64,000 bases of DNA from Azolla caroliniana. Its lineage: Eukaryota > Plantae > Polypodiophyta. A program made the position numbers and the translations under genes. The stretch is taken from positions 10,416,001 to 10,480,000 of the forward strand of contig JBHGNT010000016.1 in the NCBI GenBank assembly GCA_043228905.1, in the 5' to 3' direction. The notes under the pieces were generated by a model. That model did not search any database and was not told where the DNA came from. It saw nothing but the letters and a program-made list of their open reading frames with translations. Shown here one piece after another: positions 4,877 to 64,000 of this stretch. Numbering within the stretch: the first letter of the stretch is position 1; each line of letters opens with the position of its first letter.

Positions 4877-5580
4877 TGTTGGGATTTCGGTCCCTCCGGA
4901 TGGGATGTCCGGAGATGAATGGCTGCAAGCCCGGAGACTGTTACGGAACCGGGTGATGAAGAGTACCCGGCATGAAGCCGGATGAAGAGTACCCGGCTAC
5001 GGATCCGGATGATGAAGACCCCGGTTACGGAGCCGGATGCTGAAGACCCCGGTTACGGAGCCGGATGCTGAAGACCCCGGCTTCGGAGCCGGATGACGTA
5101 TGTACCCGGAGAGAGATCCGGATGCGGGGACATATTTGTGAATATGTTTGCCAAGGGCCCTTGAGGCTATATTTGTAAATAGCCCGAAAGTCATATGTGT
5201 ATAAATATGACTTAGGGCAAACAGTTTGTTGTTGTTGCTCATTTTTTTATGTCTTCAGCCGAGAGAGAGAAAAGTTAGAGCAGCCGAGAGAGAGAGAGAG
5301 AGAGAGAGGAAGGAAGAAGTCGACGCCTCTGTGTAATACCGCCGCCTGTGGCGAAGGCAGTGAGCTCAAGGTTGTTGCCTTGTAGCTTCACCATTGTACA
5401 TCTCTGTGTATAGTGATAGTTGGAGTTTGAGGACTCCCGTGGTTTTTTTCCCATTTGGGGTTTTCCACGTAAAACATTCTGTGTACTCTTCTCTCTATTG
5501 TTTTCGTGCATTTCTTGTATTTCCCGTTTTCTGTGAATCGATCCTATTCCTCGGTTGTGGCCGAGCACTGTTGTTCAACA
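4877..5580 (+). repeat. 5' LTR (704 bp) with 28-bp CCGG-rich tandem repeats and a (GA)n tract
   Basis: TG...CA ends; GAAGACCCC recurs at 5014, 5042 and 5070; direct repeat of 9695-10396. Confidence 0.95.
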
Positions 5581-5583
5581 AAG

Positions 5584-5595
5584 TGGTATCAGAGC
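5584..5595 (+). promoter_or_regulatory. Primer binding site, initiator tRNA-Met
   Basis: TGGTATCAGAGC 3 nt after the 5' LTR. Confidence 0.95.
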
Positions 5596-5611
5596 GACGG
5601 TAACACAGAAA

Positions 5612-8600: not shown

Positions 8601-9684
8601 GAAGTTCGACTCTTTCATGACCGACGAAGGGTACCACAAAACGCAGTCCGATCACTGCGTGTTTGTGAAGAAGTTCGAAGGAGGAGACTTTCTAATACTC
8701 CTCCTGTACGTGGACGACATGTTGATCGTCGGACGGGACCAGGTCAAGATACGGATGCTGAAGAAAGCACTTCACCGAACCTTCTCAATGAAGGACCTGG
8801 GTCCGGCGAGGCAAATACTAGGGATGCACATCATCCGGGTCCGGAAGAAGAAGCAGTTGTGGCTGTCACAGGAGAAGTACGTGACAAAGGTGCTTCAACG
8901 GTTCAACATGTCGGAAGCAAGACCGGTCGGATCGACCCTCCCGGTAAACTGCAAGTTATCCGGCAAGCAAAGTCCCAAGACAAAGGTTGAAAAGGAGGAT
9001 ATGATGAAGATACCATATGCCTCTGCCGTAGGAAGCTTGATGTACGCAATGGTGTGTACAAGACCAGACATAGGATATGCAGTCGGAGTGGTGAGCCGGT
9101 ACATGAGCAATCCCGGCAAAGAGCACTAGAACGCGGTCAAGTGGATACTCCGATACCTGAAGGGCACGGCAAACATGTGCCTCCGATTCGGCTCCGGTAA
9201 GCCCGAACTCGATGGATTTACCGATTCGGACATGTCGGCTGATGCGGATACCAGCCGGTCTACATCAAGGTACGTAATGACATATGCAGGGGGAGCCGTT
9301 TCGTGGCAGTCGAGGTTGCAGAAGACGGTTGCGTTGTCAACCACGGAGGCGGAGTACATGGCGGCTGTTGAAGCCGGCAAGGAAATAATATGGATGAAGG
9401 ACTTCATTAGAGAGCTCGGTATCCGGCAGGAGGAGTACCGACTCTACTGCGATAGTCAGAGTGCCATCCACCTTGCGAAGAACGCGGTCTACCATTCCCG
9501 GACGAAACACATCCAACGTAGATACCACTGGATCCGGGAAAGGATAGAAGACAAGGAGTTCGTGCTGACGAAGATCCACACGGACAAGAACGGGTCGGAT
9601 ATGCTGACCAAGGTGCTCACACCCGACAAGCTGGAAGCATGCCGGAAGAGGATCGGGTTGGAGAAACATCCCATGCCGAAGTGA
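5612..9684 (+). pseudogene. Copia gag-pol polyprotein with one frameshift (~6350) and one nonsense codon (9127-9129)
   Basis: Gag, zinc knuckle CFHCGKPGHFRKNC, PR WVVDSGASFH, IN LWHKRLCH and VHTDVC, RT LYVDDM, RH FTDSD. ORFs 5555-6508, 6241-9129 and 9175-9684. Confidence 0.93.
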
Positions 9685-9692
9685 AGGGGGAG
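9683..9692 (+). promoter_or_regulatory. Polypurine tract
   Basis: GAAGGGGGAG 2 nt before the 3' LTR. Confidence 0.9.
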
Positions 9693-9694
9693 TT

Positions 9695-10396
9695 TGTTGG
9701 GATTTCGGTCCCTCCGGATGGGATGTCCGGAGATGAATGACTGCAAGCCCGGAGACTGTTACGGAACCGGGTGATGAAGAGTACCCGGCATGAAGCCGGA
9801 TGAAGAGTACCCGGCTACGGATCCGGATGATGAAGACCCCGGTTACGGAGCCGGATGCTGAAGACCCCGGTTACGGAGCCGGATGCTGAAGACCCCGGCT
9901 TCGGAGCCGGATGACGTATGTACCCGGAGAGAGATCCGGATGCGGGGACATATTTGTGAATATGTTTGCCAAGGGCCCTTGAGGCTATATTTGTAAATAG
10001 CCCGAAAGTCATATGTGTATAAATATGACTTAGGGCAAACAGTTTGTTGTTGTTGCTCATTTTTTTATGTCTTCAGCCGAGAGAGAGAAAAGTTAGAGCA
10101 GCCGAGAGAGAGAGAGAGAGAGAGGAAGGAAGAAGTCGACGCCTCTGTGTAATACCGCCGCCTGTGGCGAAGGCAGTGAGCTCAAGGTTGTTGCCTTGTA
10201 GCTTCACCATTGTACATCTCTGTGTATAGTGATAGTTGGAGTTTGAGGACTCCCGTGGTTTTTTTCCCATTTGGGGTTTTCCACGTAAAACATTCTGTGT
10301 ACTCTTCTCTCTATTGTTTTCGTGCATTTCTTGTATTTCCCGTTTTCTGTGAATCGATCCTATTCCTCGGTTGTGGCCGAGCACTGTTGTTCAATA
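9695..10396 (+). repeat. 3' LTR (702 bp)
   Basis: By eye differs from the 5' LTR by one G/A change, one GA unit and terminal CA>TA. Confidence 0.95.
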
Positions 10397-11049
10397 GAAT
10401 GTGATTTTCTTTGACCAACAGAATCGATTGAAGGTTGAAAAAGGAGGGAGGGTTCTCCCCTGCAAGAATGGCCAATCTAATCGTGCCGAATCGAGGTGCC
10501 AAGCCGCTGAGGCATATTTGCACCATTTCTTCATTGTTGATGACGACATTAATCGAACCGAGGGCATCACACAACTCCTTGATCTTCAAGGTATAGCCAT
10601 GTTGTCGAGACTTGAGAATAGGAGAGAGAAAGATAAGATGACAATAAAAGGTATATATATAGAGAGAGAGACAACACTAGAAATGGAAAGAGAGTTTATA
10701 TTATAAGAGAGCAAGGATTACACAGAGTAGGCTAAGGGGCTACAAATTGGTGTTGAACTGAATGAGTTGTGATGAATGAATAGAAACCTATTTATAGGTC
10801 CTTATGGAGTATTCTAGAATGTTGTAGAATATTTTAGATATTTATGATATTTAATATAATCATGGAATATCCTAGAATGTTCTAGAATACTCTAAATATC
10901 CTGTAATAACTAATAATACATTTATTACAACTATACATTATGTATGTTATTATAATGGTTAAAGGTCTAACATATAGACCAATACGTCTTGGGCTTGAAT
11001 CTTTGTAAGGCCAAAATGTATGTCTTCATGACATTATCCCCCTTTTTTA

Positions 11050-11290
11050 CGATGAGTTCCACGAGTCGAAAGACAAGATTTCGGACTTGGCTTATGGGGA
11101 TATTTGTTGTGAAACGCAGCAACCATTTCGAAGGCATTAACAAGATTTTCAAGAGGTTCCTATGTTCGATCATTAGGTGTATAACCTAACTAGTCAACCA
11201 AATAATACAGTTTGTTGCGAACGATCTTGGAGTCGAGAATGACAACAACTTCATATTCGGGGCCATCCGAAACTTCGATTGGAGGTGGGG
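11050..11290 (-). pseudogene. Integrase C-terminal chromodomain
   Basis: PPPIEVSDGPEYEVVVILDSKIVRNKLYYLVD*LGYTPNDRT*EPLENL. Confidence 0.85.
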
Positions 11291-11835
11291 GAGATGTATA
11301 TAATAAATCTTGGCCTTACAAGGATTCGAGCCGAAAACGTCTTGGTCTATATGTTAGACCTTTAACCATTATAATAACATATATAATGTATAATTATAAT
11401 AAATATATTATTAGTTATTACAAGATATTTAGAGTATTCCAGAACATTCTAGAGTATTCTAGAACATTCTAGGATATTCCATGATTATATTAAATATCAT
11501 AAATATCTAAAATATTCTAGAACATTCTAGAATAATTCATAAGGACCTATAAATAGGTTTCTATTCATTCATCACAACTCATTCAGTTCAACACCAATTT
11601 GTAGCCCCTTAGCCTACTCTGTGTAATCCTTGCTCTCTTATAATATAAACTCTCTTTCCATTTCTAGTGTTGTCTCTCTCTCTATATATATACCTTTTAT
11701 TGTCATCTTATCTTTCTCTCTCCTATTCTCAAGTCTCGACAGTTTCAACCAAATATCTCTTTTTTCTTCTTCTCCAAATTTTTCTTCTTATCTTAACCTT
11801 ATTCAAGCAAATCTAGCAATTTTCTCTCGCAACTA

Positions 11836-39179: not shown

Positions 39180-40932
39180 TGTTATCTCCTTCTTGGAAAA
39201 CACCTTCGATTACTCCCTCAATAATCGGGTCAAGGAATCATGGTTACGTAGGAGAGTACGATAGGTCCGAGAAAGCCAATCAATTATCTGATAACCAACC
39301 ACAACCGGTGTTCCACTTATGACTTAGGAATAACGGAGTCGAAAGTATAGATTACGGAAACAAACATAGAGATGACACAACAAAGTATGTATATTGATTG
39401 TTGGATAGAATCGATTACAAGGCACACAAGCCGATTATATTACTTACTTTCTCTCTTTTAATCTAACCTAGCATATGCTTATATTCATCCCCCCTTTTCT
39501 GTGCTCCAACTACTTCCTCCTAATTTCACGACCTTTATTCTTGACTGCATGTATTTCGTTCTCCTTCCTCAGTTATGAGTTCTCAGCCAATTCCCTTTTT
39601 ACCTATTTGACCTACTTGTCTCTTTAGGTTCATTTCACACCTTGTGCCCTTTGTCCCACGTATAACACCTAGCACGCCCATGGGATAGTGCCTTGCAGGT
39701 CGACCTCAAAATAAAAAGTCACTAAAAGAAATCGAAATCGTGAAATTCAGAAAAGAGCCGAAAATTGCTACTGTACACTCAATCTTCTTCCATAATGGAT
39801 GTAATGCCCTTCAATTGCTCTTGGATTGAGATCGGCTGTCAAATCGGCCCTTTGTGTCATGTTCTCCTAGGCTTCCGTTTGCTCTACAGCCTGTTGCGTT
39901 GCCTCATCCTGTTTTGGCTCGTCTGCGTGTAACTCGACCGACAAATCGCGTTATTGGTCTTGAGTTACCTCCGTGGATACCGAAGCGACTTCCACTTGCT
40001 TTGGCTTTGTGGACTATTCAACCACTCGTTCCATCTTTGGGCCGGGGCGTGTCACCTCTTCTTCTTTTAGCTCCTGGGTTGTTTCCTCTTTCGGCTCCTG
40101 GGCTGTTGAGGCCTGTGCCGTGGCTTTTGCTTCCTTTTCGGTTTGGAGGCGCTTGCGTTTGTAACCTTTTGTTTCGATCATGAGTAGTAGTTGATCATCG
40201 TTAAATTTCTCAAGGAGGTTTTTGATGGCCGTGGTGTATGTTCGGGCCAAGACTTGGAAATCTTTAGCGAGGTCTTCACACAGGATCTAAATGTTGTTTT
40301 CGTCCATTTTGTAAAATCCGCGACTTTCTTTTCTTCGGTTTTCGGCATCCGCTCGGAAGACCTGTAACTTGACTGCTTGAGCCGACCATTCATTCCATCC
40401 ACGAGCGAGTGCTTCTTCGACTTTTTGATTAAGCTTTAGCCGGTGTTTTGACACTAGTGCTTCACTCGGGTTTGGCCCATTTCATATTTGGTATGAAGGG
40501 TGTCCAGTTCATCTTTAGCCGTCGCAACGTCCCGTTCGAGCTTGACTTTGAGGATCTCGCACGATACGGGTAACTCCAACGAGCTTTTTCTCCATTTCCT
40601 TTGAATGTAGGTCGTAGCGTCGGAGGAGTCGATCTGAAATATCGGCTAACTCCTGCAGATATTGGTCATGTTGTTGTTCGAGTTCTAGTGTCATGGAGAT
40701 TTGCAATTGGTGGAGTCTAGTCCCTCCATATGCTTATATTCAGCCCCCCCTTTTCCTTCTGCTGTTCCACAATTTATATAGTCTCTTCCTCCTAATTTAA
40801 CGACCTTTATTCTCGGTTGCATGTATTTCATTCTCCTTCCTTGGCCATGAGTTCTCAGTCGATTCCCTTTTTTACCTACTTGACCTACTCGTCTCTTTAG
40901 GTTCATTTCAAACCTTGTGCCCTTTGTCCCAC
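39180..40932 (-). mobile_element. Internally deleted LTR element: 3' LTR 39180-39667, decayed extra ORF ~39780-40720, partial second LTR ~40727-40932
   Basis: TGTTAT...ATAACA ends; ~39472-39660 repeated at ~40727-40932; charged, coiled-coil-like ORF pieces on -; tRNA-like motif at 39670-39703. Confidence 0.7.
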
Positions 40933-47628: not shown

Positions 47629-49329
47629 AAAAGGGTGGCAAAGGAATTTGAAAATGAGAGGGAGCGAGCTGGCAAAAGCAATGGCAGTGGCGGATCACCG
47701 CCTGGTTAGCGCTCGCGAGGCTGCGAGTGCCCTCGATAGGGCCATAGAAGCAACGATCGACATGATAGGCCGGTTCAGTGGAAAAGACGCCACAAGTTAC
47801 TTAGAGGCCTAGAAATCTGAGATGCAGATGACGATTATACCCGAGGATAGACAACTAACAGACTTTCCTCGGGTTGTGACACCACACATCCATACAGAGA
47901 TGACTGAAATACAAGTGGGCTTCTATGATTGGGCGGAGTTCGCGGATGAAGTTCTCGAAAGATACAACTATGAAAACTCGCTCTGGCTATCGAGAAAGGA
48001 CTTTATGGATTGGGTCAACAGCCCCGACAAGGGTCAAAACGCTTCGGCGCTCCTCCAGGAGTTCAAGTCACGGTTCGCGTGGCTCTCTAGATTGGACCGA
48101 ACCATGCTCAAAACGAGCAAAGTCCTATTTTTCGTTACGTCGTTTGACTCGCGCGTCCGGGAAAGCGTGGGTCTTCTTCTAGTACCAATCGCGGTCTCAC
48201 GACTGACTGGGCGACTGTCAAAGAAGTATGTAGCAAGATTGACAAACGTTGAGATTGGAAAGAAAGGGAGTCCCCGCCGACCGGACTAGTTGTCGAAACT
48301 AGAGCCGAGCCGACACTGACCCGAATAGAAGAAACGAGGTGGTGGCCCGAGCTAGGCCGGCAAACGTAGTCACGGGGCCTGTAGGCGGCGCATGTTAGAA
48401 GAACTGACAAGGATGGTGCGTGATCGCCAAATCACCCAGGCCCGGCAAAGCGAGGAGGGTCAGTTGTGCGACCGACGACCGCCAGCCAATCAGAGGTGCA
48501 TATGGTGTGACGCCACCGGGCATTCCCGGAGAGATTGCGCTGAGCTCGGTGAAGTAATGTAGTCTTTCTCTCAAATGGCAGGATACATGCAAGCGACACG
48601 TGAAGATTGCTTGATGCGAATTTCGGACGGGGTGGCATGAAGAGGCTAATGGAAGAAGCCGCGTCATGGCACGTCGAAGTTGTCCACTACTCGGCTTCGG
48701 CCGGTATCTGCGTAGGCGAAAGGGCGGCCAAACCCGATTCAAATCCTGGGTTCTGGCCGGTTATTCTCGAGACCTTGTCCGAAGGAAGGTTGCAGAAGGG
48801 AGAAGCGGAGGGCGTGGAGGAACGTGTGCGCGAAGTTACCGGCTGGAGTGATCCCGTTGAGGAGAGCACTGGCTTTGTGGAGGCCGCATGCAGGAACTAC
48901 GAGGCCTTGATCGACGAAAGGCGAGCGGGGAAAACCGGGGGAGCGGGCCCTTCGGGGAGGTATGACACGAGAAGCACGCCAAAAGGGCATGATGCCGAGA
49001 TACGCTTAAAAGCGTGTGGAGCCTTGAGTCATGATGAAGGGATTGGGGAAGCCATGGAGGCGGTCTCGTTCGATGATACCCTTGGAGAAATCAGGAAGGT
49101 AGTCAAGGGAGGCCTAAGCGAAGATCGAGTCATACCGGTCAACTCGGTCGACATGTATGAAGTTATTGTAGACTTCAAAAGAAAAACCAAGGCGCATCGG
49201 ATTGCCCGAGTAGACACCAAGTACAAGATTGTCGACCGGAAGGTGAAGCCCATCGTGGCCCCCTTATCAGAGGGCAGCTAGGAACGAATAAAGGGGGTCG
49301 CTACCGACCCGAGCTTGCGAGATCGGGCA

Positions 49330-49748
49330 TGTTACTCTCTGACCGGACAAGGTCTAACACAAGGTGTCACGGAGACACTTCACCAAAGGGTGATTACGGC
49401 ATAGGATTAAGATTCAACGATTACACCGACTTACGTAGGTTACACGATTAAAGTGCTTTGGTTAATTACACGCGTAAGATATAACAGTAAGTACAGAACG
49501 GAAATCAAGACAGAAGTATAAACATCATAAGCTCTATTAATTATCCGCTGCCATTACAATGGGGTCCGGGCCTTTAAATAGGTTTCCGGCCCGTAGTACA
49601 AAACGGTGCCTATCGCACCTATTCGGGATCCGTCCGGATCTGGAACGGCATACCGTTTCCAGTCCGTCCGTCCACACTATGCTCATTTACAACCATATAT
49701 AATTAATTCCTTCACTCCGTATTTTGGACTCCTTGCCGGCCGGTAACA
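49330..49748 (-). repeat. 3' LTR (419 bp)
   Basis: TGTTAC...GTAACA; TATA-like CCTATTTAAAGG and T-rich U5 on the - strand. Confidence 0.95.
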
Positions 49749-49750
49749 TA

Positions 49751-49788
49751 TGGCACGCCCGTGGGACAGTACCTTGTACGTCGAACCC
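49751..49788 (-). promoter_or_regulatory. tRNA(Arg)-3'-end-like motif at the expected PPT position
   Basis: Element sense reads GGGTTCGACGTACAAGGTACTGTCCCACGGGCGTGCCA-TA-LTR; 28/34 identical to 39670-39703. Confidence 0.7.
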
Positions 49789-49848
49789 TTCTCAGCCCCT
49801 TCATTGTTCACCCGAATTGTCCAAAATATCTTGTTCCAGAGTTTCCAA

Positions 49849-52659
49849 TTATTCTTCCGGTTGTGGTTGTTGCGGCTGTGCTTGCTGCTGCTGCTGTGGT
49901 TGCGGTTGGGACTGAGGCTGCTCCGGCTGCTCTATAGGCGGCTGCTCGGCGGCTGCTCCGTTTGTTTCTCTATTCTCTGACTCCGGCATCTCCGTTTGAC
50001 TGCTTTCGGTCCGGTCTCCTTCCAGTACCGGTTCCTCATCACTGAGGTTGACCGTAACCAGTTCTCGTGCTTTCTCTTCCCGGATCCGGGACCTCTCATA
50101 GCTTTCAAACTGGATCTGCGCCTCCAGCCTGTCGTCGTCCAGCTGAGCTACAAGTTGCCGGACCTGCTCTAGTTGGTCCTCCGCCAAGGCTTGAAAGTCT
50201 TCGGCCAGCTCATCTCTTATGCCGGTGAAGTCTTCGGAATTCAGCATATAGCAATCATCTCCCTCCTTCCGCCGGTTCTCTACGTCGGCCCGGAGCAACT
50301 GGAGTTCCGCCGCGTTCGTGGCCCACTTGGTCCACCATTTGACGGACCCGTTGTCAATCAAGCTCTTGGTCTGGTTCAATCAGGCCCGCATGATATCCTG
50401 GATGCGACTTGCTCCCATTTGTGCTCTGCTTTCCACAACTTGTCGCTCCTCCTTCAACTGCTTGATGAGATTAGCCGTATCCTCCGCCTGCTCTTTGTAG
50501 CGCGTCATCTGCCTTTGATATGTCGTTTGCAGCCTCTGCAGTACCTCCGCCGCTCTTTCTTTTTCCGCCTGCTATTGCCTGAGGAGCTCTGTCCGAACCT
50601 TCTCCGCCTCTTCCAACCGTCTTCTGGTTTCCGCTTGTTCCTTGGCGAATGCGGTTGCGGTCCGATCAACTGCTTGCCGGAGCTCATCTGTCCGTTCCTT
50701 GTGCTCCGTTTGCAACCGTTTATACTCCCGGTGTAATTGCTCAAATTCCTCCGTTTTTTGTTTGAGCATGCCGTTGATCTGGCGATGGTTCCGGTCCTCC
50801 CGGTCCTTTACCTGCCGGAGTTCCTCTTTCAGGCGCTCTACTTCTGTTTCGGCGTTTCTCCGGAGCCTCTCCTTCTCTTGCAGCATTTTCTCCTTCTCCT
50901 CCTTGAGCCGGTCGTACGCTTGGTGGCCTTTCCGTAAGCTCTCCTCGACCCGGCGTAGATTCTCAGCAGTCTTTTTGAGTTCTGCCTCCGCTGCCGTCTT
51001 CAATTCTCTTTCGCGGCTCCTCAGCGCTTCTTGGGCAGTTAGCTCATCCTTTAAATCCGCCAGCTCTTGGGCTTGTGCTGCATTTCTCTCCGGAACGGTT
51101 TCCGTTGCCGGGGTCTGGTTGCTATGTACAGGTTGATCTGACGCCTTATTCTGTACATTGCCCGGAGTCACCGGTGCTTGGACTTGTGTTGTCAAAGCCA
51201 ATTGAGCCATTTCCCTTGTGACCCTGTCCTAGTCTTGTTCAAGGCTCCGGATTCTGGACCGGGCCGTCTCTAGATCTACGGTTGTGACGAGCAACCGTTC
51301 CTGGTGCGCTCTCTCCTCCGCCTCTATATACTCGACCGCTCCGGCGATTTGCTCGCCTACCCACCGTAGCCACATGCTACTGGTGCCTTGCTGCTGTACT
51401 GGTCGGGTCGGCTGGTTCACTGTGGAATTTTCTGGCCTGAGTGCCTGCATCTGCCGTTCTGGTTCTACTCCTTGGCCGCCGTGTGTGCTGGCTGGGCTCG
51501 CCGGCTGTTGAGTTCCGGTTCTCGCCGTCTCCGGAGCCGTTGGAATGACTTCTTCTATAGAAGTTGACAAGGCCGGTTCCCTACGCACCGGTTCCGGTTC
51601 CTCCCTTGTGGTTTGCTCAGGTTGAGTTGGGGGCGTTTCTGCCTCTCGCGGGTACGACCGCTCCCCCCCTGTCTCGGCGGTCCTACTTCTTGACCGTCGT
51701 TGGAGGTGCTCTTCTGGCTCCTCCGTTTCCTCTTCCTGTGTAACGGCATGTTTCTGTGCCGTCAAGGGTTCCGGTTCCTTCTGTCCCGGTCGCCGTATGG
51801 TTATCTTAACAGGTCGGGCCGGTGACACCTCCTCCGGTTCTGAGAGCCGTTTCTTCCCTTTCGTCGCCTTCGACGCCAGCAGCTGCTGTCGTTTGGATGC
51901 CGGCTTCGAGGTGCTTCCTTCCGATACTCTTGGCCGCTTCTTTGGCTGAACGGTCTCGACCGGCGGCACGAGCAATGTTATCCACTGAGCTACGGCATGC
52001 CACAGCGTCCGGCCCTCCTTGCCGTCCTTTCCTCGTACCATGTCGATTGCCATGCACAAACCGTCTGCAATCAACACTGGCCAATCCACCTTGGTCCCTT
52101 CATAGGTGGCTATGATCATCCCTGCCCGATTTTTTGGCATGACAGGGGGTTGGGGGTACACGTGGCCGTACTCATGGAGCACTCGAGCTATCTCCCTGAA
52201 TAGCGGATCTTCGCCGCCCTGCGTTCGATAGCCTTTGCCGGCAACAGAGTACTCACCGAAATATCGGATGAGTTGCTCCGAGGTTGGGTTATCGATCTGA
52301 AAGATACCTCCCTCCGGAAGGCCTGTTAGCGCACGGATCACTTCCTCGGTGATGACTTCTGTGTCGAGCTCCTTGATGACCCGGTCGGCTTCTCTGTGCG
52401 GTGGTGCCTCCATGATGGCCAAGAACCCCTCCAGTTCGTGTTGCCTGAACCATTTCCTGGCCGCTTCTGACAACGTTTGTGGTTCCATGTCTGCTTCGAG
52501 GTCGAGGAAAGATGGCGAGGTAGAGTGGTGATGAGAGTGAGAGCGAGAGAGAGAGCGTTCTGAACGCGGGGGTTCTCTGAGTGCAGGTTTGCGTTTGCTA
52601 AGCTTCCACTGCCTTGGTGCTTCTGTGCTTCTTGGCTCGCGAAAAAAGAAGGTCTCCAT
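49849..52659 (-). pseudogene. Extra (env-position) ORF, ~936 codons: globular N-terminus, disordered linker, long coiled coil; three in-frame stops
   Basis: ORFs 51229-52659, 50572-51210 and 49849-50379 share one frame, separated by TAG, TAG and TGA. Confidence 0.85.
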
Positions 52660-52873
52660 GCGCTCTTCTTTTTCTCTGTGCGTCTTGGCGCCTTTTTTCG
52701 AGCATGCGCACGTCGTGTACCGATTTAGTATTAAGTAACGTGGCGGCTCTTTAAATGCCCACTACGTACCTTTTCGCTCCTTGCTTTCACGTCCGTTCAC
52801 ACCTCGATTTTTAATGATTTTATTATTATTATTTATTTATTTATTTATTTATTTTAAATGACGGTATGTGACC

Positions 52874-55800
52874 TTACACATCCGTAGGTCCCCTCGGACC
52901 CTTACCGTTTTCCTTACGGGTTGCCGTGTCTTCCTTCGCCTCTGCTACGGGTTCCCCGTCGTCTTTTTCTTCCATCCGTACCGTTCCCGGTATAGTGCCG
53001 GTGGGCTGCATAAACGGGTTACTTGGCATCGGTCCTTTATAGGGCTTTAGTCTAAATCCGTTCACCCACTTGCCTAGTACTTCACCGGCAAGTGTCCCTA
53101 TCTGATAGGACCCGTTGTATTCCCGTGTCAGCCAATACGGGCCGGTCCATCTAAACCAGAGTTTACCCGGCATCTTGCCCATCCTTGTTTGGAATACTAG
53201 CACCGGCTTTCCGATTTCGAACATCTTCTCATTACCTTTCCGGTGACGGTCAACGAACGCTTTCCGTCGTCGTTGCTCCAGTTCCATGTGTAGGATGTTG
53301 GCCAGCCGTTGCTCCTCCAGTTCGCATAGTGCTGCTAGCCGCATTTCCTCCGACTCCTTTTCATTCAGCCGCTCCCGTAGTTGGATCCGTAAGCTTGGTA
53401 CCTGAAATTCCACCGGCATGACCGCCTCTAAACCGAACGCTAGCCGGAACGGCGTTGTCCGGATACTTGTTTTGTATGTCGTTCGGTACGCCCATAGCGC
53501 GCTATGGAGCTTTGTATCCCAGTCCGTTCGGTTTTCATTGACGATTTTGCGGAGAATGTTCTGCAGCGTTTTGTTGGTGGATTCTGCTAACCCGTTCGCT
53601 TGTGGGTAGTACGGTGTGCTCCGTTTATGGACCACGGCATAGAACGTTGTTAAGCTTTCCACTACCTGGCCGAGGAAGTGCCCTCCTTGGTCGCTGATTA
53701 ATTCAATCGGACATCCATATCGGCACCAAATGTTCTCGTACAGGAATTTTGCTGTGGATGACGCGGTATTGTCTCTCAAGGCCTTAGCCTCCACCCATTT
53801 AGTGCAATAATCCGTTGCCACGATGACATAACGATTACCTGTTCTCATTGCCGATGGCTTGAACGGTCCGACAAAATCCAACCCCCACTTCTGGAATGGC
53901 TCTAGTGGAAGTACCGGTTGGTGTGGCATCCGTGCTTGCTCCGTAGGCTGGCCCATTCGTTGGCATAGGTCACATTCCTTAGCATACTTGACGGCGTCTT
54001 TTAACGTCGTGGGCCACCACAAGCCGCTCTGCCATACTTTCCTTGCCGTCGCTTCCTCGGCATAGTGTCCTCCGGCAACCCCACAGTGTGCCTCCCGTAA
54101 GATTACTTCTTTCTCGTCACTACGGACTGCCCGTCTCCATATTCCATCTGCTCCTTTGTGGTAGAGAGTGTCCCGTAACAGACAGAAATTGTGGCTCTGC
54201 ACCGCCAGTCGTTTCCTCTCGTCCCGGTTCATTTCCTCCGGTGGCAGGCCCGTGCTTAGGAACTGGTGCATGTTTGTCAGCCACCTATCTTCTGATGCCA
54301 CCGTGTCGTCCGCTGCCGTTTCCGGGGTGATACGGAATAACTCTGCGTCCGGGAATTCATCCGATACTCCGTCGCCTGCTTCTCCGGACTCTAACCGGCT
54401 CAGATAGTCTGCTACGGCATGCTGGATACCGGGCCGGTGGAAGATCTCGAATTCGAACTCCTGCAACAGCAAGGTCCAACGAGCCAACTTACCGGTTAGG
54501 GACGCCTTGGACACTAAGTACAGGAGCGCCGAGTGATCCACATGAAAGGAGAACTTCCTTCCCAATAGGTAATGCCGAAACTTTGTGACACTGTAGATCA
54601 TGCCCAGGGCCTCCCGTTCCGTCGTCGAATAGTTCTTCTCCGCTTGGGACAGCTTCCGGCTGGCGTAATAGACCGGCCGGTACCATTTAGGCTCCGTAAG
54701 TTGCATTAAGGCGCTGCCGATAGCGATGTCGGACGCGTCAACGAACACGTGAAATTCCTTGCTCCAATCCGGAGGCTGCACGACGGGTGCTTGCGACAAA
54801 AGTACCTTCAGGGCATTGTATGCCTTATCCTCCGTATCTGTCCATTGGAACGGTGTCCGATGTACCGCGGTGTGTAATGGTGTAGCCAAGTCAGCCAAGT
54901 GACGGAGCATCCGGCTGTGCCACCGGATCTGTCCTAAGAATCGGCTTAGTGCTTTGGCCGTTTTCGGCGCCGGTGCCCCTAGTATCGCGTTTACTTTGTC
55001 CGGGTCGACCGCAATGCCCTCCTTACTTACAATGTGTCCCAGTAAGATTCCACTTGAAACCCCAAAGATGCATTTTGCTGGGTTTAAGCTTAGCCGGTAT
55101 AACCTACACTTTTCAAGGCATAACCGTAGGTGCTGCAAATGGTCTTTTCCCCGGCTATAGACTGCAAAATCATCCAGGAAAACTTGCATGAAGGCAGGAA
55201 TATATTCGCCGAAGATCTCCATGATGATTCGCTGGAACGTTGCTGGTGCCGTTTTTAGGCCGAACATCATGACTTCGGCCACAAACACCCCCCATTCGGT
55301 GACGAACGCTGTCTTCTCCTGGTCGTCCGGGTGCATCCGGATTTGATTGTAACCGCTGAACCCGTCTAGAAAGCTATAAACTTCATGGCCGGCGACGGCA
55401 TCCAGTACTCCATCCGTGAACGGAAGAGGGAATGCATCCGTAATTGTGGCTGCATTTAATTTCCTGTAATCTACACACACGCGGATTTTACCGTTCTTCT
55501 TTGGGACGACGACGATGGGGCTCAGCCACGTCGCTTTCTTTACCGGCCGGATGAAGCCCACTCTTAGGAGTTTGTCGATTTCCTCCTTCACTTTGGCGGC
55601 GTAGTTGGGGTTCATTCGGTAACGTCGTTGCGCCACTGGTTTCGCGTCCTTGCCTAAGTGGATCTGATGCTGATATAATTGCGGGTCCAGCCCTCGCATG
55701 TCCTCGTATGACCAGGCGAATACGTCGCGAAACTCCATGAGAAGTTTGATCATCGCCGCTCTATCTTCCGGCTTCATTTCTTTGGCGATGTGAACCGGCT

Positions 55801-55882
55801 TTGATTCATCCTTGCTTCCTAGGTTCACTTCGTCGAGCTGGGATGTTTTTACCCGTTGGGAAACGGCCATTTCCCGTTCCAA
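52874..55882 (-). CDS. Gypsy pol: RT, RNase H, integrase
   Basis: VCVDYRKLN, LDGFSGYNQI, FLDD, FVDASDIA, HHCC zinc finger, WGLDFVGP, SDQG, YPQANGLAE, WTGPY. Confidence 0.95.
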   Translation of the reverse strand: MEREMAVSQRVKTSQLDEVNLGSKDESKPVHIAKEMKPEDRAAMIKLLMEFRDVFAWSYEDMRGLDPQLYQHQIHLGKDAKPVAQRRYRMNPNYAAKVKEEIDKLLRVGFIRPVKKATWLSPIVVVPKKNGKIRVCVDYRKLNAATITDAFPLPFTDGVLDAVAGHEVYSFLDGFSGYNQIRMHPDDQEKTAFVTEWGVFVAEVMMFGLKTAPATFQRIIMEIFGEYIPAFMQVFLDDFAVYSRGKDHLQHLRLCLEKCRLYRLSLNPAKCIFGVSSGILLGHIVSKEGIAVDPDKVNAILGAPAPKTAKALSRFLGQIRWHSRMLRHLADLATPLHTAVHRTPFQWTDTEDKAYNALKVLLSQAPVVQPPDWSKEFHVFVDASDIAIGSALMQLTEPKWYRPVYYASRKLSQAEKNYSTTEREALGMIYSVTKFRHYLLGRKFSFHVDHSALLYLVSKASLTGKLARWTLLLQEFEFEIFHRPGIQHAVADYLSRLESGEAGDGVSDEFPDAELFRITPETAADDTVASEDRWLTNMHQFLSTGLPPEEMNRDERKRLAVQSHNFCLLRDTLYHKGADGIWRRAVRSDEKEVILREAHCGVAGGHYAEEATARKVWQSGLWWPTTLKDAVKYAKECDLCQRMGQPTEQARMPHQPVLPLEPFQKWGLDFVGPFKPSAMRTGNRYVIVATDYCTKWVEAKALRDNTASSTAKFLYENIWCRYGCPIELISDQGGHFLGQVVESLTTFYAVVHKRSTPYYPQANGLAESTNKTLQNILRKIVNENRTDWDTKLHSALWAYRTTYKTSIRTTPFRLAFGLEAVMPVEFQVPSLRIQLRERLNEKESEEMRLAALCELEEQRLANILHMELEQRRRKAFVDRHRKGNEKMFEIGKPVLVFQTRMGKMPGKLWFRWTGPYWLTREYNGSYQIGTLAGEVLGKWVNGFRLKPYKGPMPSNPFMQPTGTIPGTVRMEEKDDGEPVAEAKEDTATRKENGKGPRGPTDV

Positions 55883-55948
55883 CGCTTCCTGTGCTTGCCG
55901 TAATTCCTGAATCGCATCTTTGTCTGGTTCGGCTTCGGTTTCGTCCCG

Positions 55949-58717
55949 CTACGGCAAGTATGGCGCTACGGCTTCAGCCACGTCAATCTCGAAGAGTGGT
56001 ACGATCTTTGGGTGTTCCTCCAAGTACTGGGCTTCTTCGTCGTCTGCCAACCCTTCAAGCATGTTCACGCATTCCGCATATAGCGGTGTGCATTCCTTAC
56101 CGTTGCTCGTCCATGGTTGTGTCGGAACCCGGACCTTGGCTTTTCCGCGCCGGAAGGTAATCATATTTTTCCGCCAATTTTGCTTGATGTGTGCTGTTTT
56201 CAACCATGGTCTGCCCAGCAACAGTGGGTACGCGCCTTGCGCCTGTAGCTGCAACACTACAGCCGAGATGTGAAATGTGTGGCCTCTTATGGTGACTTCC
56301 AATTTCCGTATTAAGCCCGTTGGCCGTACAGAGCTCGTATCCGCCATCCGTAGCCAGAACGGACATGGCTCCCATTCATGTATACCCAAGGCATCACACG
56401 TGCGGAGGCTTATTACGTTCACCCCGGAACCTCCATCGATTACTGTGCCGGGAAGTTCGTGCCCTTTGACAATAGCTGTAATCACCGGACTACTTGTGTC
56501 CACCACCGTCGGTCCCTCCTCCGGATTCGAGAAAAGGACTGGTGCCGGTGGGGCTATACCGTTTGTCATGACCGTTTTTAGCCCTTCCGTAAATCGCGGC
56601 ACGAGCTGTAAGAGTCTTCCTAATGGCAACGTGATCTGACATTCTTGCAGTGTTTGCCATGTCTCGTTTTCTGGGTGGCTACCGCCGGCACTCCCTATGG
56701 TATTTGCCTTTTGCCGTTCCGTGTCCGCGACGTTCCTTTCATTGGCTTCCTTCACCCACTCCGTCGCCTGTTTTCGTATGGCCTCTTGTGTTTCCCACTC
56801 TTTGGCCATGCCTTTCGACCGTGTGGTTACTTGCTGTAAATCCGCCACTTCCGGAACCACCATATTAACTGCTGGTCGTTTATCGTAGCTCTTTGCCGGG
56901 CACTGGTTACTGTAGTGGCCTTCCTGCCTGCAGTAATAGCAGTATTCTTTACGGGTATTGCTGGATTCAGCTTTGCTGGTATCCGGAGTCGGTCCCATAG
57001 TGAGTGGTGCGTTCTGTGCCGGTTGGCTCCTTGGGGTTCCCTGTTCCGGGTCCCTAGTGTGACCACCTTTCTTGAAATTGCGTTTCTTATTATTCTTTTT
57101 ATTTCGGTAGTCCGGTCGTGGTGGATCGTAAAATCGGCCGTAGTCCTCCTGGTGCCTTTGGTAACCAGGGGAATGGTCTCTGTCGTATTGCTCGTGTCGT
57201 CTGTTGGGTTCCCGATAACGGTCCGATCGCTCATACCGGTCGTAGTTATCACGCCGATTCCCGTACCGACCATCATTCTCTTGTCTGTCTCCGTACCGGA
57301 CATCCTGTGCCGGTTGGTACCGGTTCATTCTTTGCCAACGATCGTCATCTTCGTCTCGGCTGCTTCTTGGCTTGATCCGTCGGACGGGTGGTGCTTGTCG
57401 GTTTAACAGGTTATACTCGCACCGGTCCGTTGTATGACTCTTGGATTGACAAATCACATACTGGGTTCGCATGGTGCACTCCACTGCCGAGTGTCCGGCA
57501 TTCAAGCAGATTGTGCATTGAATTGCCTGCCGGAACCGGAGATCTTCCTCGGTGGGTAACGCCCGTTGCAGCGTTCCCAGCGTAAGCCATGAGCTTGACT
57601 TTTCCATTTCTCTGACCCGGTCAATGACCTGGTCGATGGTGCATCCTCGAAAGTCGATCACCGTACACACCGTGCGTAACGGTTCCCGGAGTGCGTTTAA
57701 AAATATCGTCCGTAATTCCTCCTCCGGGGGTGCACGGGCAAGCTGGCTATGCATTCGTTGGAAACGGATGACGAATTGGGGAATGCTTTCCCCTGCCTCC
57801 TGTCGGATCGTATAAAACAGGCCCACCATTGTCGTCTGGTCGACCTCCTTGTGGAAAAAATGCAAGAATTTTGCTTTTAATTCTGCAAAGGTTGTGATGG
57901 TCGCCGGGTCCTGCGTCCGCCGCCATCGTGTCGCTGGTCCCTCCAACGTGACTCCGAATTCCGCTATCTTCGAGCGTTCTTCTTCCTCCGGTGTCATTCG
58001 CTGGGACGTGTGATTTGCTTCCCATGTCTGCTCGAAGTCATGAACATGCGCTTCCGCGTCCGGATCATCGCGATACTTTGAGTATTGGAACGGCATGTCG
58101 TCGTCCAGTATTAGGCCGCGGTTTAGTGGCGTTTGTTGATATCTTTCCGGTTTTCTCTCCGGTTCCACTTCCGGTTCTTTTGCCGGTGCTTTTTCCGGTT
58201 CCTTTTCCGGCTCTCCTTCCGGTACTTTTGCCGGCTCTTTCTTTGGTGTCGGTGGCTCTGCTTCTTCCACTTCCGGTGTTGGTGGGTTGACGGCTTCCGT
58301 TTGTGGTTCCGGATAGCCCTGGTTGAGCGGTTCCGGTTCTGGAGTCGGCACGGTATCCGACCCGTCGTCCTCCGGGCTGTCGGGGGTATCGTTGCTACTC
58401 CGGTAGTTCGTGTGCACGCTGTATCCCCCTTCGGAATCCGATTCGTAGGCTGAAAAGGCTGCTGCCTCGTTTTCTCCGCTTGCCAGCGCCTCCAGGAGGC
58501 TTTCGGTTTCCCGGAGACTACTTAGACTGCTTCCGTCGTCCTGGTCGCGAGTTTGCCGTAACCGAAGAGATTCCTCCGCGACTCTCCGGATCTCGTTGGA
58601 GAATGAACGATCCGAGCGAATTTCGTGCGCTGCTTGTTGGAAAGTCTCACGCTGTCTTTGCCGTTCGGCGAGGCGTCGAGCTCGGTCTGTAACCAAGTCG
58701 TGCGTTGGTCTAGTCAT
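55949..58717 (-). CDS. Gypsy gag-protease; in frame with pol across a single TAG
   Basis: IRQEAGESIPQFVIRF, knuckles CTICLNAGHSAVEC and CYYCRQEGHYSNQC, protease IDGGSGVN and LLLGRPWL. Confidence 0.93.
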   Translation of the reverse strand: MTRPTHDLVTDRARRLAERQRQRETFQQAAHEIRSDRSFSNEIRRVAEESLRLRQTRDQDDGSSLSSLRETESLLEALASGENEAAAFSAYESDSEGGYSVHTNYRSSNDTPDSPEDDGSDTVPTPEPEPLNQGYPEPQTEAVNPPTPEVEEAEPPTPKKEPAKVPEGEPEKEPEKAPAKEPEVEPERKPERYQQTPLNRGLILDDDMPFQYSKYRDDPDAEAHVHDFEQTWEANHTSQRMTPEEEERSKIAEFGVTLEGPATRWRRTQDPATITTFAELKAKFLHFFHKEVDQTTMVGLFYTIRQEAGESIPQFVIRFQRMHSQLARAPPEEELRTIFLNALREPLRTVCTVIDFRGCTIDQVIDRVREMEKSSSWLTLGTLQRALPTEEDLRFRQAIQCTICLNAGHSAVECTMRTQYVICQSKSHTTDRCEYNLLNRQAPPVRRIKPRSSRDEDDDRWQRMNRYQPAQDVRYGDRQENDGRYGNRRDNYDRYERSDRYREPNRRHEQYDRDHSPGYQRHQEDYGRFYDPPRPDYRNKKNNKKRNFKKGGHTRDPEQGTPRSQPAQNAPLTMGPTPDTSKAESSNTRKEYCYYCRQEGHYSNQCPAKSYDKRPAVNMVVPEVADLQQVTTRSKGMAKEWETQEAIRKQATEWVKEANERNVADTERQKANTIGSAGGSHPENETWQTLQECQITLPLGRLLQLVPRFTEGLKTVMTNGIAPPAPVLFSNPEEGPTVVDTSSPVITAIVKGHELPGTVIDGGSGVNVISLRTCDALGIHEWEPCPFWLRMADTSSVRPTGLIRKLEVTIRGHTFHISAVVLQLQAQGAYPLLLGRPWLKTAHIKQNWRKNMITFRRGKAKVRVPTQPWTSNGKECTPLYAECVNMLEGLADDEEAQYLEEHPKIVPLFEIDVAEAVAPYLP

Positions 58718-58752
58718 CCATTACCGTCGTTCGCTGCGAGAAAGCAGGAATC

Positions 58753-58762
58753 GTGGTCGCCA
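58753..58762 (-). promoter_or_regulatory. Primer binding site (tRNA-Arg-like)
   Basis: TGGCGACCAC 6 nt inside the 5' LTR boundary, element sense. Confidence 0.75.
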
Positions 58763-58768
58763 AAACTG

Positions 58769-59187
58769 TGTTACTCTCTGACCGGACAAGGTCTAACACA
58801 AGGTGTCACGGAGACACTTCACCAAAGGGTGATTACGGCATAGGATTAAGATTCAACGATTACACCGACTTACGTAGGTTACACGATTAAAGTGCTTTGG
58901 TTAATTACACGCATAAGATATAACAGTAAGTACAGAACGGAAATCAAGACAGAAGTATAAACATCATAAGCTCTATTAATTATCCGCTGCCATTACAATG
59001 GGGTCCGGGCCTTTAAATAGGTTTCCGGCCCGTAGTACAAAACGGTGCCTATCGCACCTATTCGGGATCCGTCCGGATCTGGAACGGCATACCGTTTCCA
59101 GTCCGTCCGTCCACACTATGCTCATTTACAACCATATATAATTAATTCCTTCACTCCGTATTTTGGACTCCTTGCCGGCCGGTAACA
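58769..59187 (-). repeat. 5' LTR (419 bp)
   Basis: Direct repeat of 49330-49748. Confidence 0.95.
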
Positions 59188-60094
59188 GGGCAGGCATAGG
59201 ACACCGTTTCACTGACAAAACACTATGAGAGCTGAAGATCGATGGGGGTGACTTCCTACTACTAGCGGAAGAGGACCGGTTCAGAAGGATGCTCGAGAGG
59301 CACGGGAAAGCCTTCGCATTCTCGCCGAGAGAGATCAGATGCGTCGACCCAACCATTGTCGAACCAATGGTGATCTTTACCGTGTCGCACGTGCCGTGGA
59401 GTCTCAAACCAATTCAAGTACCGAGAGCTCACATGCCAATGTTGATGGAGCTTCTTAAGCAGAAGGTGGAGCTGGGCATCCTCGAACCATCGAGTACCCC
59501 TTACTCTAACCGGTGGTTTACGATACCAAAGAAGAACGGTACATTGCGCTTCATCCAGGACTTACAACCGGTCAACATGGTGACCATCCGCAATATGGGA
59601 GTTGGGCCGTCGATCGATGAGTTCGTGGAAGCCTTCGCCGGAAGGTCCATATACTCGGTTGGAGACCTTTACTCGGGGTACGACCAGTTCTAGCTGGCCG
59701 TGGAAAGCAGGGACATCACAACAATGCGAACCCCTCTCGGCCTAGTTCGAATGTGTACCCTACCACAGGGAGGGACCAACTCGGTGGCACACATAGTAAA
59801 TGCAATGAACAGAGTCTTGCGGGATTGCATTCCGGACATCACAATGCCTTTCCTGGAAGACATCCCTATCAAGAGGTGTCCAAAGGACACCAAGGATGAA
59901 TCGATCGATGCGGACAGGTGCCGAAGGTTTGTCACCAACCATATCTCTGACTGCGAGAAAATACTATAGAGGTTCGAAGGCGCGGGGCTTACATTCTTGG
60001 GAGGAATGTCGGCCTTCGGACAGCCGGAGATCTTAGTGGTGGGCCATCTATGTGGGTCGTACGGACAGAAGCCATTGTCGACCAAGGTAGAGGC

Positions 60095-63000
60095 TGAAAA
60101 AGATTATGTACGGAAGCAATAGAAAACGAACACAGAAAACACGCAGATTTAATGGAAAGCTTTACAGTATGCGGGAGAGATAGAGAAAGAGCAAAACAAC
60201 TCAGTTCTATTACAAAACAATAATAGTTTTCTGTACATGAAACGTGCTCAACAACACTATTTATACAAGTCCTGAGAGGACTGACAGAAGTACCACGTAC
60301 TTCAATGATCACTCGAGCGTCTGGCACTGACTATGAGACTATTAACTCCCTAGTAGTCTAGCTGCTACTAGGCTCCCCATCTCACCGGCTTACTTGCTCA
60401 CCGGGTCACCGATCCGGCTCATCCTTCTGGATGCCGATGCTCAGGCTTATTCAGCCGATCCGGATCCGGTTGAGCTTGCCGCTCCACACTCCCCCTCAAG
60501 CTCAATTTGAGGTCGAATCGTAGTGTCAGTCTCTATGGTAGCCGGTCCTTCTACCTGGCTCCTTCTGGCGTCACTTGGCCTTGCTCGCGCTCCTCGTCCG
60601 GTCCGGTCCTGTTTGCCGCGACCCTTCTGTTCCAGCGCACCTCGACTTCCTTGGTTGGCTTGTTTGCTCAACAGGCCTAATTCAGCTCCCTCGCTATTGT
60701 GACTTCAGCTTTTGCCGATTCGCCGATCCCGTCGTGTTGGCATCAACTTTTTCTGCCTTCTCGTCCTCTTGGCCTTGAATTGATCCAGTTCTTCTGAATC
60801 CTTTTGTAGAACCGAATCGGCTGTCTTCGATTCGTTCCAGCTCTTGTCCGAATCGGTTGCTCCCGATTCGTCTTCCGGTTCCAGGCCCTTCACCACATCG
60901 GACCATGTTCGGTCGACTCTTCCCTTCTTGACTCTACCTCCGCTGCCGCTTGTTCCAACTTGTTCGGATGTGTCAACTGCCTTTGTCGACTCGGCTCCTT
61001 TCTTCTTCATGTCTCTCCCCTTGTCGGTTCTTCCCTCACCGGCGCAATCAGCAGTCTCTTTGCCTTTGCCCGATCCGGTGGTGTCTTTGCCCATTCTCCC
61101 CCTCAAGTGTGGCACATCAAGATGCTGAACACCAAGCATTTCGGTGAAGTGCTACAACTTGTCTGATTCGAGCGGTTTGGTGAAGATGTCGGCAACTTGC
61201 CGATCTGTATGAACATACCGAAGTTCGACTTCACCGCTCAGGACACGCTCACGCAGGAAGTGGTAGTGCACTTCAATGTGCTTTGTGCGAGCTTGGAATA
61301 CGGGGTTCTTGGCGAGCTGCATGCTGCTTATGTTGTCATAGTAGATCAGGGTCGGAGTCGGCACCTCGATCTGCAAGTCTTGCAGCAATCGCCGAAGCCA
61401 AATGGCTTCATAGATGGCAACTGTAGCGCCCCCGTATTTAGCCTCAGTGCTCGACAGAGCCACTGTTGGCTGCTTTTTGCTGCTCCACGCAACAATTGTG
61501 CTACCAAGGGAAAACATATAGCCGGAAGTTGAACGACGATCTCATGCATCGCCGGCCTAGTCGACATCCGTGTAACCGACTAGCTCTTCGGTCATACCTC
61601 GCCGGTATTACAGTCCCTGGTCCTTCGTGCCGCTCACATACCGCAATATTCGGTGTGCGCACTGAAGATGCTCTACAGTCAGCTTCTGGATGAATTGGCT
61701 AATCACACCGATCGGATAGCTGATGTCGGGTCGACTGATGGTCAAATATATAAGGCTTTTGACAATTTGTCGGAACCGTTTCTCATCGCAAACCGGTCCG
61801 GAGTTGGGACAGAGCTTCTAGTTCTGGTCTAGGGGTGTAGAAATAGGGCGGCATTCCATCATGCCGAACTTGTACAACATATTCAACACATAGTGTCTCT
61901 GTGAGAGCAATATGCTGCCGGGGGTTCGGATCACCTCGATACCAAGGAAGTAGTGAAGGTCCCCTAGGTCCTTCATCTCAAATGCGTCCAACAGTTGGGA
62001 CTTAACTCGATTGATTTCATCGAGTCCGGGTCCGGTGATGAATCATCAACATACAACAAGATGCATACCGGACCGTCCGAACCTTGCTGGATGCACAACG
62101 AAGAGTTAGACTTGGAGGCGGAAAACCCCATCTTACGCAACTGGTGCGTGATCTTCGCATTCCAAGCTCGGGGGTCTTGTTTTAGGCCATAAAGTGACTT
62201 CTTCAGCCGGCATACCGTCGACTTGTTCATCCCCGACTGGAAACCAGGGGGTTGGGTCATAAAGACCTCTTCTTCAAGATCGCCGTGAAGAAATGCATGT
62301 CGGGAACTCAAGGCTCCTTATGCACAACGCTTGGCCACAACCGAGCTTAGAATCATACACAGAAAACAGGAAACGGAAAACACGCGACACAAAGGAGAAG
62401 AAAAAAAAAATGTACACAGGATGTTTACGTGGAAAACCCAAACTAAGGGAAAAACCACGGCAGCCCACAGGCTGCAAACTATCGCTATGTTAGAATGTAC
62501 AACAGTGAGTTCACGGAGGCAACGACCTCGTGCTCACGATCCTCGCCACAGGCGGTGGTTACAACAGAGGCTACGACCTCTTCCTCTCTCTCTCTCAGTG
62601 TACACTATTACGTGCTCTCTCTTCTTCTTGCACCAACAAGAAATGACAACAACAAAATTATAACTAAAAGTTTGCACTAAGTCATATTTATACTAATATG
62701 ACTTTTCGGCTATTTACAAATATAGCCTCGATGGACTCTCAGAAACATATTTATGAATATGTCTCTTCATCCGATTCTCACCGGGTCTGCACCATCCGGC
62801 TCTCCGTAGCCGGGTACTCCTCATCCGGATCTCACTAGGTCTGCACCATCCGGCTCTCCGTAGCCGGGTACTCCTCATCCGGTTCTCACCGGGTCTGCGT
62901 CATCCGGCTCTCCGTAACCGGGTACTCCTCATCCGGTTCTCACCGGGTCTGCACCATCCGACTCTCCGTAGCTGGGTACTCCTCATCCGGTTCTCACCGG

Positions 63001-64000
63001 GTCTGCACCATCCGGCTCTCCGTAGCCGGGTACTCCTCATCCGATTCGGCACTGTTCTTCTCTCTTCCCATCCGGAGGGACCTGTCTCCCAACTATGCAT
63101 TCTTCACGTCCATTTGGTGAAGATGCCACCCCCTTGCCACAACAACTGCTACGTCCACACGAACCGTCGTCATCTTCGCTGCTAGAGCAAAGGTCTCGTC
63201 GTAGTTGATTCTATGGGTCTGCGCATATCCCTTTGCCACTAACCGGGCCTTGTACCGGTTAACTGAACCGTCGGTGTTGTACTTTACCTTGTACACCCAC
63301 TTGCACCTGATCGGTTTACAGTGATGGGGAGGGTCAACTACGTCCCATGTATCGTTGGCATCAAGTGCCCACATCTCTTCCTCCATAGCGGCACGCCAAT
63401 TTGCATCCCTTTCCGCTTCTGCATAGCTCTTTGGCTCACGCACTTCTGCCACCTTGGTCATGTATGCATAGTGATGCGCCATGTACTCATTGTACCCGTA
63501 CCGCTTAATAGGTTCCTTCTGGTGGGTTGACAGACGTAACCCACCATGACTCGGTTTGAGGCCCTTCTTGGCCGGTTTGGTTTTTATTGCCGAAGATCCG
63601 CCTCCTCTTATACCGGAGTTAGATCCGCTCCGATCCGACTCATCATTACCGGTTTCATAATCCGGCATCTTCTTCTTCCCCTTTTCTTTGCGCGTGAACC
63701 GTCTCCTCGGTTCCTTGCGCGGGGAGAGTACGACAGAGTCTTCACTACTTGCCGGTTCCTTATCTAACGGTCGGATTGACCCAGTCTCTCGTTCGGCCCA
63801 CTTAACCGAAATGAGATCGAACTCTCTTCTAGAGTGCCGACATCCTCATCTTCTAATTGGATTGGTTCAGGCTCACTAGCCTCATCCTCCAGTATCGGGT
63901 CGGGGTCGGAAGTCGGAGCTGGTAAGGCATACCATGATGCCGTCTCATCAAACTCAACATCCCGGCTAACTTGGAACTGCTTCGTCCGGGGGTTGTAACA
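60095..64000 (-). mobile_element. Ty1/Copia 3' half: RT, RH, C-terminal extension, PPT 60489-60497, 3' LTR ~60095-60488; continues beyond window
   Basis: [57 protein letters not shown]. Confidence 0.88.
62298..63094 (-). mobile_element. Solo LTR (797 bp) related to the LTR of 4877-10396, TSD ATGCA, with ~5 x 54-bp tandem repeat
   Basis: ATGCA at 62293-62297 and 63095-63099; removal restores DVKNAFLHGDL. Shares GGTCCCTCCGGATGGG, GGCTATATTTGTAAATAGCC and ATAAATATGACTTAG with the 4877 LTR. Confidence 0.9.

Follow-up and report, generated by a model that had tools for sequence, protein, structure and literature searches.

An antisense tRNA-Arg(UCU) block stands in place of the polypurine tract in Athila-like Ty3/gypsy elements and is a candidate priming site for the plus strand

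The window analysed here, a 64,000-nucleotide stretch of Azolla caroliniana DNA, carries a Ty3/gypsy element at 49330-59187 on the minus strand, recognisable by a gag followed by RT, RNase H and integrase, by LTRs with TG...CA ends and by a TSD. An earlier note on this DNA had placed the element on the minus strand, with near-identical LTRs and a perfect TSD, and this reading held: that strand carries gag, RT, RNase H and integrase, the 419-bp LTRs differ by one mismatch (at 49474), and the 5-bp TSD GGGCA is present on both flanks. The element is built as follows.

49325..49329, plus strand: left copy of the TSD, GGGCA
49330..49748, minus strand: 3' LTR, 419 bp, TG...CA ends, TATA-like box at about 49573-49581
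49849..52761, minus strand: additional sense-oriented 3' reading frame of 971 codons, interrupted by three stops
52874..55948, minus strand: pol (RT, RNase H, integrase), RNase H motifs DASD, TEREA, VDH and ADYLS present
55949..58720, minus strand: gag and a protease-like stretch; Retrotrans_gag and zf-CCHC by Pfam, protease by eye
58753..58762, minus strand: 10-nt sense PBS, 6 nt after the 5' LTR, fitting a tRNA that ends GUGGUCGCCA
58769..59187, minus strand: 5' LTR, 419 bp
59188..59192, plus strand: right copy of the TSD, GGGCA

The extra 3' reading frame (49849-52761) has no match in Pfam, and homologues of its last part, at 27-46% identity, adjoin the block described below in related elements. 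A Pfam scan of the window element found neither a chromodomain nor an aRH, with no RNase_H or RVT_3 match between the RNase H and the integrase. An in-frame stop (55949-55951) separates gag-protease from RT at a point where a relative at 745-2667 (+) reads through, and on account of this stop before pol the window copy is probably not autonomous. The element itself sits within a different gypsy-type element of the plus strand, whose pol region it interrupts (48604-49329 and 59188-59900). Elsewhere in the window, a second young LTR element occupies 4877-10394 (702-bp LTRs, 99.6% identity, a 980-aa ORF; copia-like by eye) and has a PBS that we take to be of the tRNA-Met type; a 54-bp tandem repeat in six copies (62709-63101) sits in a stretch related to the LTR of that element, and an inverted repeat pair of about 439 bp with 92% identity spans 10603-11741.

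At the 5' end the LTR is followed, in the canonical manner, by a tRNA PBS, the tRNA being likely of the Arg type. Among tRNAs ending like the partner of this PBS in a phage scan of 120 loci, 11 of 16 were tRNA-Arg, a count that is only suggestive for phage tRNAs. The neighbouring stretch, 58720-58752, contains a CTGC...GCAG hairpin and a short T-loop-like complement, as does the corresponding region of a metagenome relative (L047), and the sense PBS may likewise consist of two parts.

At the 3' end, no polypurine tract (PPT) lies next to the LTR. Its place is taken by a 38-nt block that stands 2 nt from the 3' LTR with its CCA end facing the LTR.

49749..49750, minus strand: 2-nt spacer between block and LTR (TA in the window copy)
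49751..49767, plus strand: 17-nt core of the putative antisense PBS, complementary to tRNA-Arg(UCU) from position 59 to 76 except for one absent C
49768..49780, no strand assigned: 13-nt insert after tRNA position A58; a covarying hairpin of 4 bp with a 3-nt loop
49781..49788, plus strand: 8-nt T-arm complement (tRNA positions 51-58), second part of the bipartite site

The earlier note had reported both the missing PPT and the exact 2-nt distance of the CCA end, and the sequence and coordinates agree with it; its figure of some 40 nt to the nearest purine run corresponds to 37-39 nt between the 3' LTR and the nearest purine-rich 15-mer (13 of 15 purines). Its description of the block as a mimic of the tRNA-Arg(UCU) 3' end stands insofar as 24 of the 26 3'-terminal bases match, and needs amending in that the match is not contiguous: there is one mismatch, one C is missing, and a 13-nt hairpin insert interrupts it. 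The reference used here was a CCA-bearing tRNA-Arg(UCU) copy from metagenome locus L005; it has a C where the sequence given in the note has a T. The single mismatch of the block falls at a site that is unpaired in the copy's own acceptor stem. When the 3' 26 nt of the tRNA were aligned with the 60 nt before the LTR, the score was 32, and the best of 5000 dinucleotide shuffles reached 23 (0/5000 at 32), which puts the motif far beyond the chance level against which the note had wanted it checked; the block region also ranks first of 6394 60-nt windows on both strands. ARAGORN detected no tRNA gene within the window, and a weak likeness of 49748-49799 (-) to the tmRNA 5' end in Rfam (4.7 bits, E 6.3) is attributed to chance. 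The insert begins after A58, the usual RT stop on a tRNA primer, and the block as a whole has the organisation of a bipartite PBS, with two tRNA-pairing segments and an internal loop. Since the element RNA is identical to the tRNA in these segments it cannot bind the tRNA, and it is the minus-strand DNA that can.

In an alignment of 17 hand-picked distinct versions with a 13-nt insert, whose relatedness may inflate the counts, 88.2% of the cells of the 4-bp insert hairpin are paired, with 10 double changes, a level that none of 500 shuffles reaches; slid controls are at most 60.3% paired. The tRNA-pairing parts are fixed and the insert varies in sequence with its hairpin kept, a pattern that, as judged from the alignment, is the design of a putative binding site with two tRNA-pairing segments and a looped-out spacer. 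An alternative fold of the RNA upon itself, in which the 3' half of the block forms a hairpin in the window RNA, was rejected, with 72.5% of cells paired, no double changes and 500/500 shuffles as good; the self-folding energy of the window RNA is ordinary (z 0.05 and -0.08). Comparison of G-U with A-C pairs as a clue to the working strand was uninformative, both lying at methylation-prone sites.

A trace of the tRNA itself is found at L005:2079-2154 (-), where a slightly decayed 76-nt tRNA-Arg(TCT) with CCA, the sole tRNA that ARAGORN detected in the 54 metagenome loci, stands 5 nt after the U5 end of an LTR and is followed by decayed integrase sequence. This copy is probably a retro-copied primer, the trace to be expected of one that was not removed, and it indicates that tRNA-Arg(UCU) has primed synthesis in this lineage; as a footprint it comes from a single decayed contig with 1.95x coverage, marks the U5 end as opposed to that of the block, and leaves the order of the two strands undecided.

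The block recurs widely among relatives. Depth in Logan peaks over 49728-49771 in four of four DNA runs (at most three samples and two organism labels), and 47-63 contigs per run diverge right after 49788 (agreement 0.46-0.50); the block is therefore common to many diverged copies. None of the 40 variants listed, out of 134, falls within 49751-49788. The sense PBS appears to be conserved too, as no variant of at least 3% among the 18 listed for three DNA runs falls in 58742-58773. The TA spacer of the earlier note is correct for the window copy and peculiar to it, position 49749 being C in more than 99% of Logan depth (74-95 contigs per run).

A pattern scan of metagenomes returned 55 matches in 54 loci, of which 15, all outside an ENA series, had no LTR-end context and no hit to the element proteins and were dropped (three that were checked have 59-66% GC). 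The 40 matches counted, in 39 loci of the ENA series, all contain the 17-nt core, though the pattern allowed 18; in 37 of them a 2-nt spacer separates the block from an LTR ending in AACA, and the insert measures 13 nt in 34 matches and 14 nt in the other 6. Their LTR ends, taken together with that of the window copy, form 14 clusters. The closest metagenome LTRs are 71-73% identical to those of the window, so the ENA-series copies may come from another host; belonging to one accession series, the 39 loci may represent one host species. Five further blocks beside LTR ends were found beyond this count: one in a second, diverged element of the window, and an additional block in each of L003, L007, L018 and L038, of which two are truncated where the contig stops.

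39670..39707, plus strand: decayed block of the second diverged element, between a 3'-ORF homologue and an LTR at about 39180-39667
40134-40433, minus strand: the 3'-ORF homologue of that element

The comparison with relatives that the earlier note had proposed thus finds the block in place of the PPT, these five included, in a scan that selects on the motif, is not genome-wide and so gives no count of copies with a normal PPT. Purine-rich stretches are present 36-110 nt upstream in many ENA-series copies. The viral contigs searched contained neither the block nor a pol relative, and a prokaryote scan for the tRNA end yielded 23 loci, mostly bacterial tRNA-Arg, which are uninformative on the host.

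Orientation is consistent across these copies. The 3'-ORF homologue points at the block in all 12 matches that have one, and in L047 gag is on the strand of the 3' ORF as it runs toward the block. Of 16 LTR stretches, 13 have a TATA-like box on the gag-pol strand at position 128-262, and such boxes are scattered on the other strand (7/16). As expected of a 3' LTR, the block-bearing LTR runs, by eye, into unrelated flank without a PBS in both window elements and in L011, L022, L023 and L026. Nine loci have internal regions of 1.5-3.6 kb without gag or pol, that open with a sense PBS and close with the block, in short-read contigs whose LTRs may be collapsed; their 10-nt sense PBS is for the same tRNA-Arg(UCU), with one mismatch in L012. 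These derivatives keep sense PBS and block just as TRIMs, by the account in PMC10886601, retain PBS and PPT. One of them, a Pack-like LTR element at L054:343-3990 bounded by two tRNA sites, contains host-gene-like pieces, by eye a fatty-acid desaturase-like stretch and leucine-rich repeats.

Based on these sequence features, we regard it as moderately probable that host tRNA-Arg(UCU) anneals to the minus-strand DNA and primes the plus strand. In the mechanism envisaged, a tRNA would prime minus-strand DNA at the 10-nt sense PBS; after strand transfer RT would copy the block and RNase H would clear the RNA; and the exposed minus-strand DNA would pair with the 3' 26 nt of the tRNA as three helices of 10-11, about 6 and 8 bp, the first two parted by a 1-nt bulge and the last two by the looped-out hairpin, probably aided by the zinc knuckle of Gag. 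Starting at the CCA end, RT would then copy the 2-nt spacer and enter U3, and RNase H would cut the tRNA off, the 2-nt end that remains being trimmed by integrase. A tRNA on DNA is a substrate of RNase H, and the breaks in the hybrid may, speculatively, keep the enzyme from destroying the tRNA before priming; protection of this kind is only argued. In favour of the model, the polymerase and RNase H sites of Ty3 are about 13 bp apart (PMC5371799), a distance just greater than the first hybrid segment of 10-11 bp.

The ends of the element constrain any such model. The left LTR edge is where the plus-strand primer ends in the established model, as set out in PMC5371799, and the 5' LTR starts directly at the TSD, with no block inside. 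The plus-strand primer must therefore end within a few nt of the LTR, and the upstream purine run is ruled out as the priming site, as the block would in that case be part of the 5' LTR. The earlier note had named plus-strand ends at that run as a finding that would overturn its idea; both the boundary between 5' LTR and TSD and the relatives contradict it, seven of 40 having no run of more than 6 purines within 120 nt, only runs of 3-6.

Alternatives differ in what would supply the primer. The element's own RNA, identical to the tRNA 3' end, might survive RNase H and be cut after CCA as a non-purine stand-in for the PPT, and this would dispense with a second factor in trans, provide a segment fully complementary to the new DNA at identical spacing, and suit an RT that, as we infer, may recognise a tRNA-like primer end. 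The window RNA does fold the 3' half of the block into a hairpin; that fold, however, is not conserved and its energy is ordinary, and a primer in cis does not explain why 14 LTR-end clusters keep a T-arm match 31-38 nt from the CCA end, or why the insert varies in sequence yet stays paired. Of the two mechanisms that the earlier note had offered we therefore favour the tRNA in trans and consider a primer in cis unlikely, as the tRNA-pairing parts are kept, the insert is kept as a hairpin, and the self-fold from which an RNase H-resistant piece would arise is not. That the missing C was never repaired does not decide which strand is primed, since Ty1 and Ty3 do not rebuild the PBS from the tRNA (PMC5371799).

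It is conceivable, if doubtful, that the packaged RNA is antisense to gag-pol, so that the block would serve as first-strand PBS and the 10-nt site would prime the second strand, both strands still being tRNA-primed. The block is built as a two-part PBS with an internal loop, comparable to that described for Ty1 (PMC5371799), and is nearly fixed, and the sense PBS is short, its tRNA type and its spacer (2, 5 or 6 nt) changing from one family to another, so that the block looks the better PBS of the two; the L005 footprint fits either order. Against this, every ORF runs the opposite way, TATA-like boxes are consistently placed on the gag-pol strand only, and an AT-rich spacer of 3-6 nt before the sense PBS is described as normal in ATHILA (10.64898/2026.03.20.713144). 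Still less probable, in our estimation, is a block that is no primer at all, being a captured tRNA relic or a regulatory element (a decoy or target of tRNA fragments, or a means of pairing the RNA end to end), with the plus strand primed by something unrecognised. Many copies do have purine-rich stretches upstream, and in the gag-pol-less family the sense PBS exactly complements the last 10 nt of the block, so that the RNA ends could pair; the two ends of the window family, however, are not complementary beyond about 5 nt, a primer lying upstream would make the block part of the LTR, of which the 5' LTR shows nothing, and the 2-nt spacing is fixed in 37/40 matches.

We think it quite likely that this lineage of plant Ty3/gypsy elements dropped the PPT, that both of its strands are host-tRNA-primed and its ends functionally symmetric, and that it perhaps replicates from either RNA strand.

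In a tree built on the RT-RNase H region from 115 sequences (the window element and 114 of 120 hits, midpoint-rooted and without REXdb-labelled references; six hits were dropped for short coverage, among them the only aRH-bearing one), the element groups with Marchantia, Riccia and Adiantum proteins with a support of 1.00, apart from the seed-plant hits, which we infer to be Athila-like and to which it stands in a sister position. We describe the window element as Athila-like in place of assigning it to Athila. With Athila, a non-chromovirus OTA clade of REXdb (PMC6317226), and with the Athila-like elements of seedless plants (PMC2864245) it shares the lack of a chromodomain and aRH, a 5-bp TSD, an extra 3' ORF and an AT-rich spacer (3-6 nt) before the sense PBS. 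The PBS of Athila is given as matching tRNA-Asp, -Asn or -Ala, and that of the window element differs from it in being Arg-type, with Arg(UCU) itself shown for a related family; the junction of PPT and 3' LTR is reported as kept in 97% of Brassicaceae Athila elements, where the window element has the antisense tRNA site instead (10.64898/2026.03.20.713144). The Tat group (Ogre, Retand, TatI-III), as defined in PMC6317226, needs an aRH, which the element lacks; Ogre, Retand and TatIII also use a tRNA-Arg primer, but carry an aRH, and the tRNA-Arg is there recorded for the sense PBS after the 5' LTR. Phygy and Selgy, described in the same source with a 4-bp TSD, a tRNA-Trp or -Ala PBS and no extra ORF, do not fit an element with a 5-bp TSD and an extra ORF.

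Known systems resemble the block in part. Like the block, the bipartite PBS of Ty1 pairs with its tRNA through two segments that a small internal loop separates; it belongs, however, to the 5' end of the RNA, where it serves to prime the minus strand, in an element that retains its PPT (PMC5371799), whereas the site formed by the block is confined to minus-strand DNA, lies at the 3' end and is a putative one for tRNA annealing. The 3' PBS of Drosophila gypsy and the 3' part of the Ty3 PBS are likewise second tRNA-related sites near the 3' end, but these are described as RNA complementary to the tRNA that binds internal tRNA arms and bridges the RNA ends, and gypsy cDNA synthesis is reported to need only the 5' PBS (PMC1635307). 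In the present element, unlike gypsy and Ty3, the RNA has the very sequence of the tRNA 3' end, CCA included. Helenus TRIMs also have tRNA-derived sequence in an LTR element, placed, according to PMC10886601, inside the LTR as a Pol III promoter, with PBS and PPT both present. In the literature searched, with Repbase, GyDB, the REXdb per-element table and most subscription papers outside its scope, no account was found of a PPT whose place is taken by an antisense PBS. The block is real, conserved across the lineage and apparently undescribed, and the second-strand priming route that we propose from it is probably new.

To our knowledge, the PPT is treated as near-universal in the replication of LTR retrotransposons and retroviruses. 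LTR pipelines based on PBS and PPT would mis-orient or drop elements of the present kind, which may explain why they are apparently undescribed. If the proposed route is true, there is a second natural way to start the plus strand, in a high-copy and recently mobile lineage without a PPT, and an RT is able to extend a tRNA annealed to DNA in a manner that spares the tRNA from its own RNase H; the block would offer a short, defined substrate for testing how RNase H chooses primers. Both strands of the replication intermediate would, in that case, be exposed to interference by tRNA fragments.
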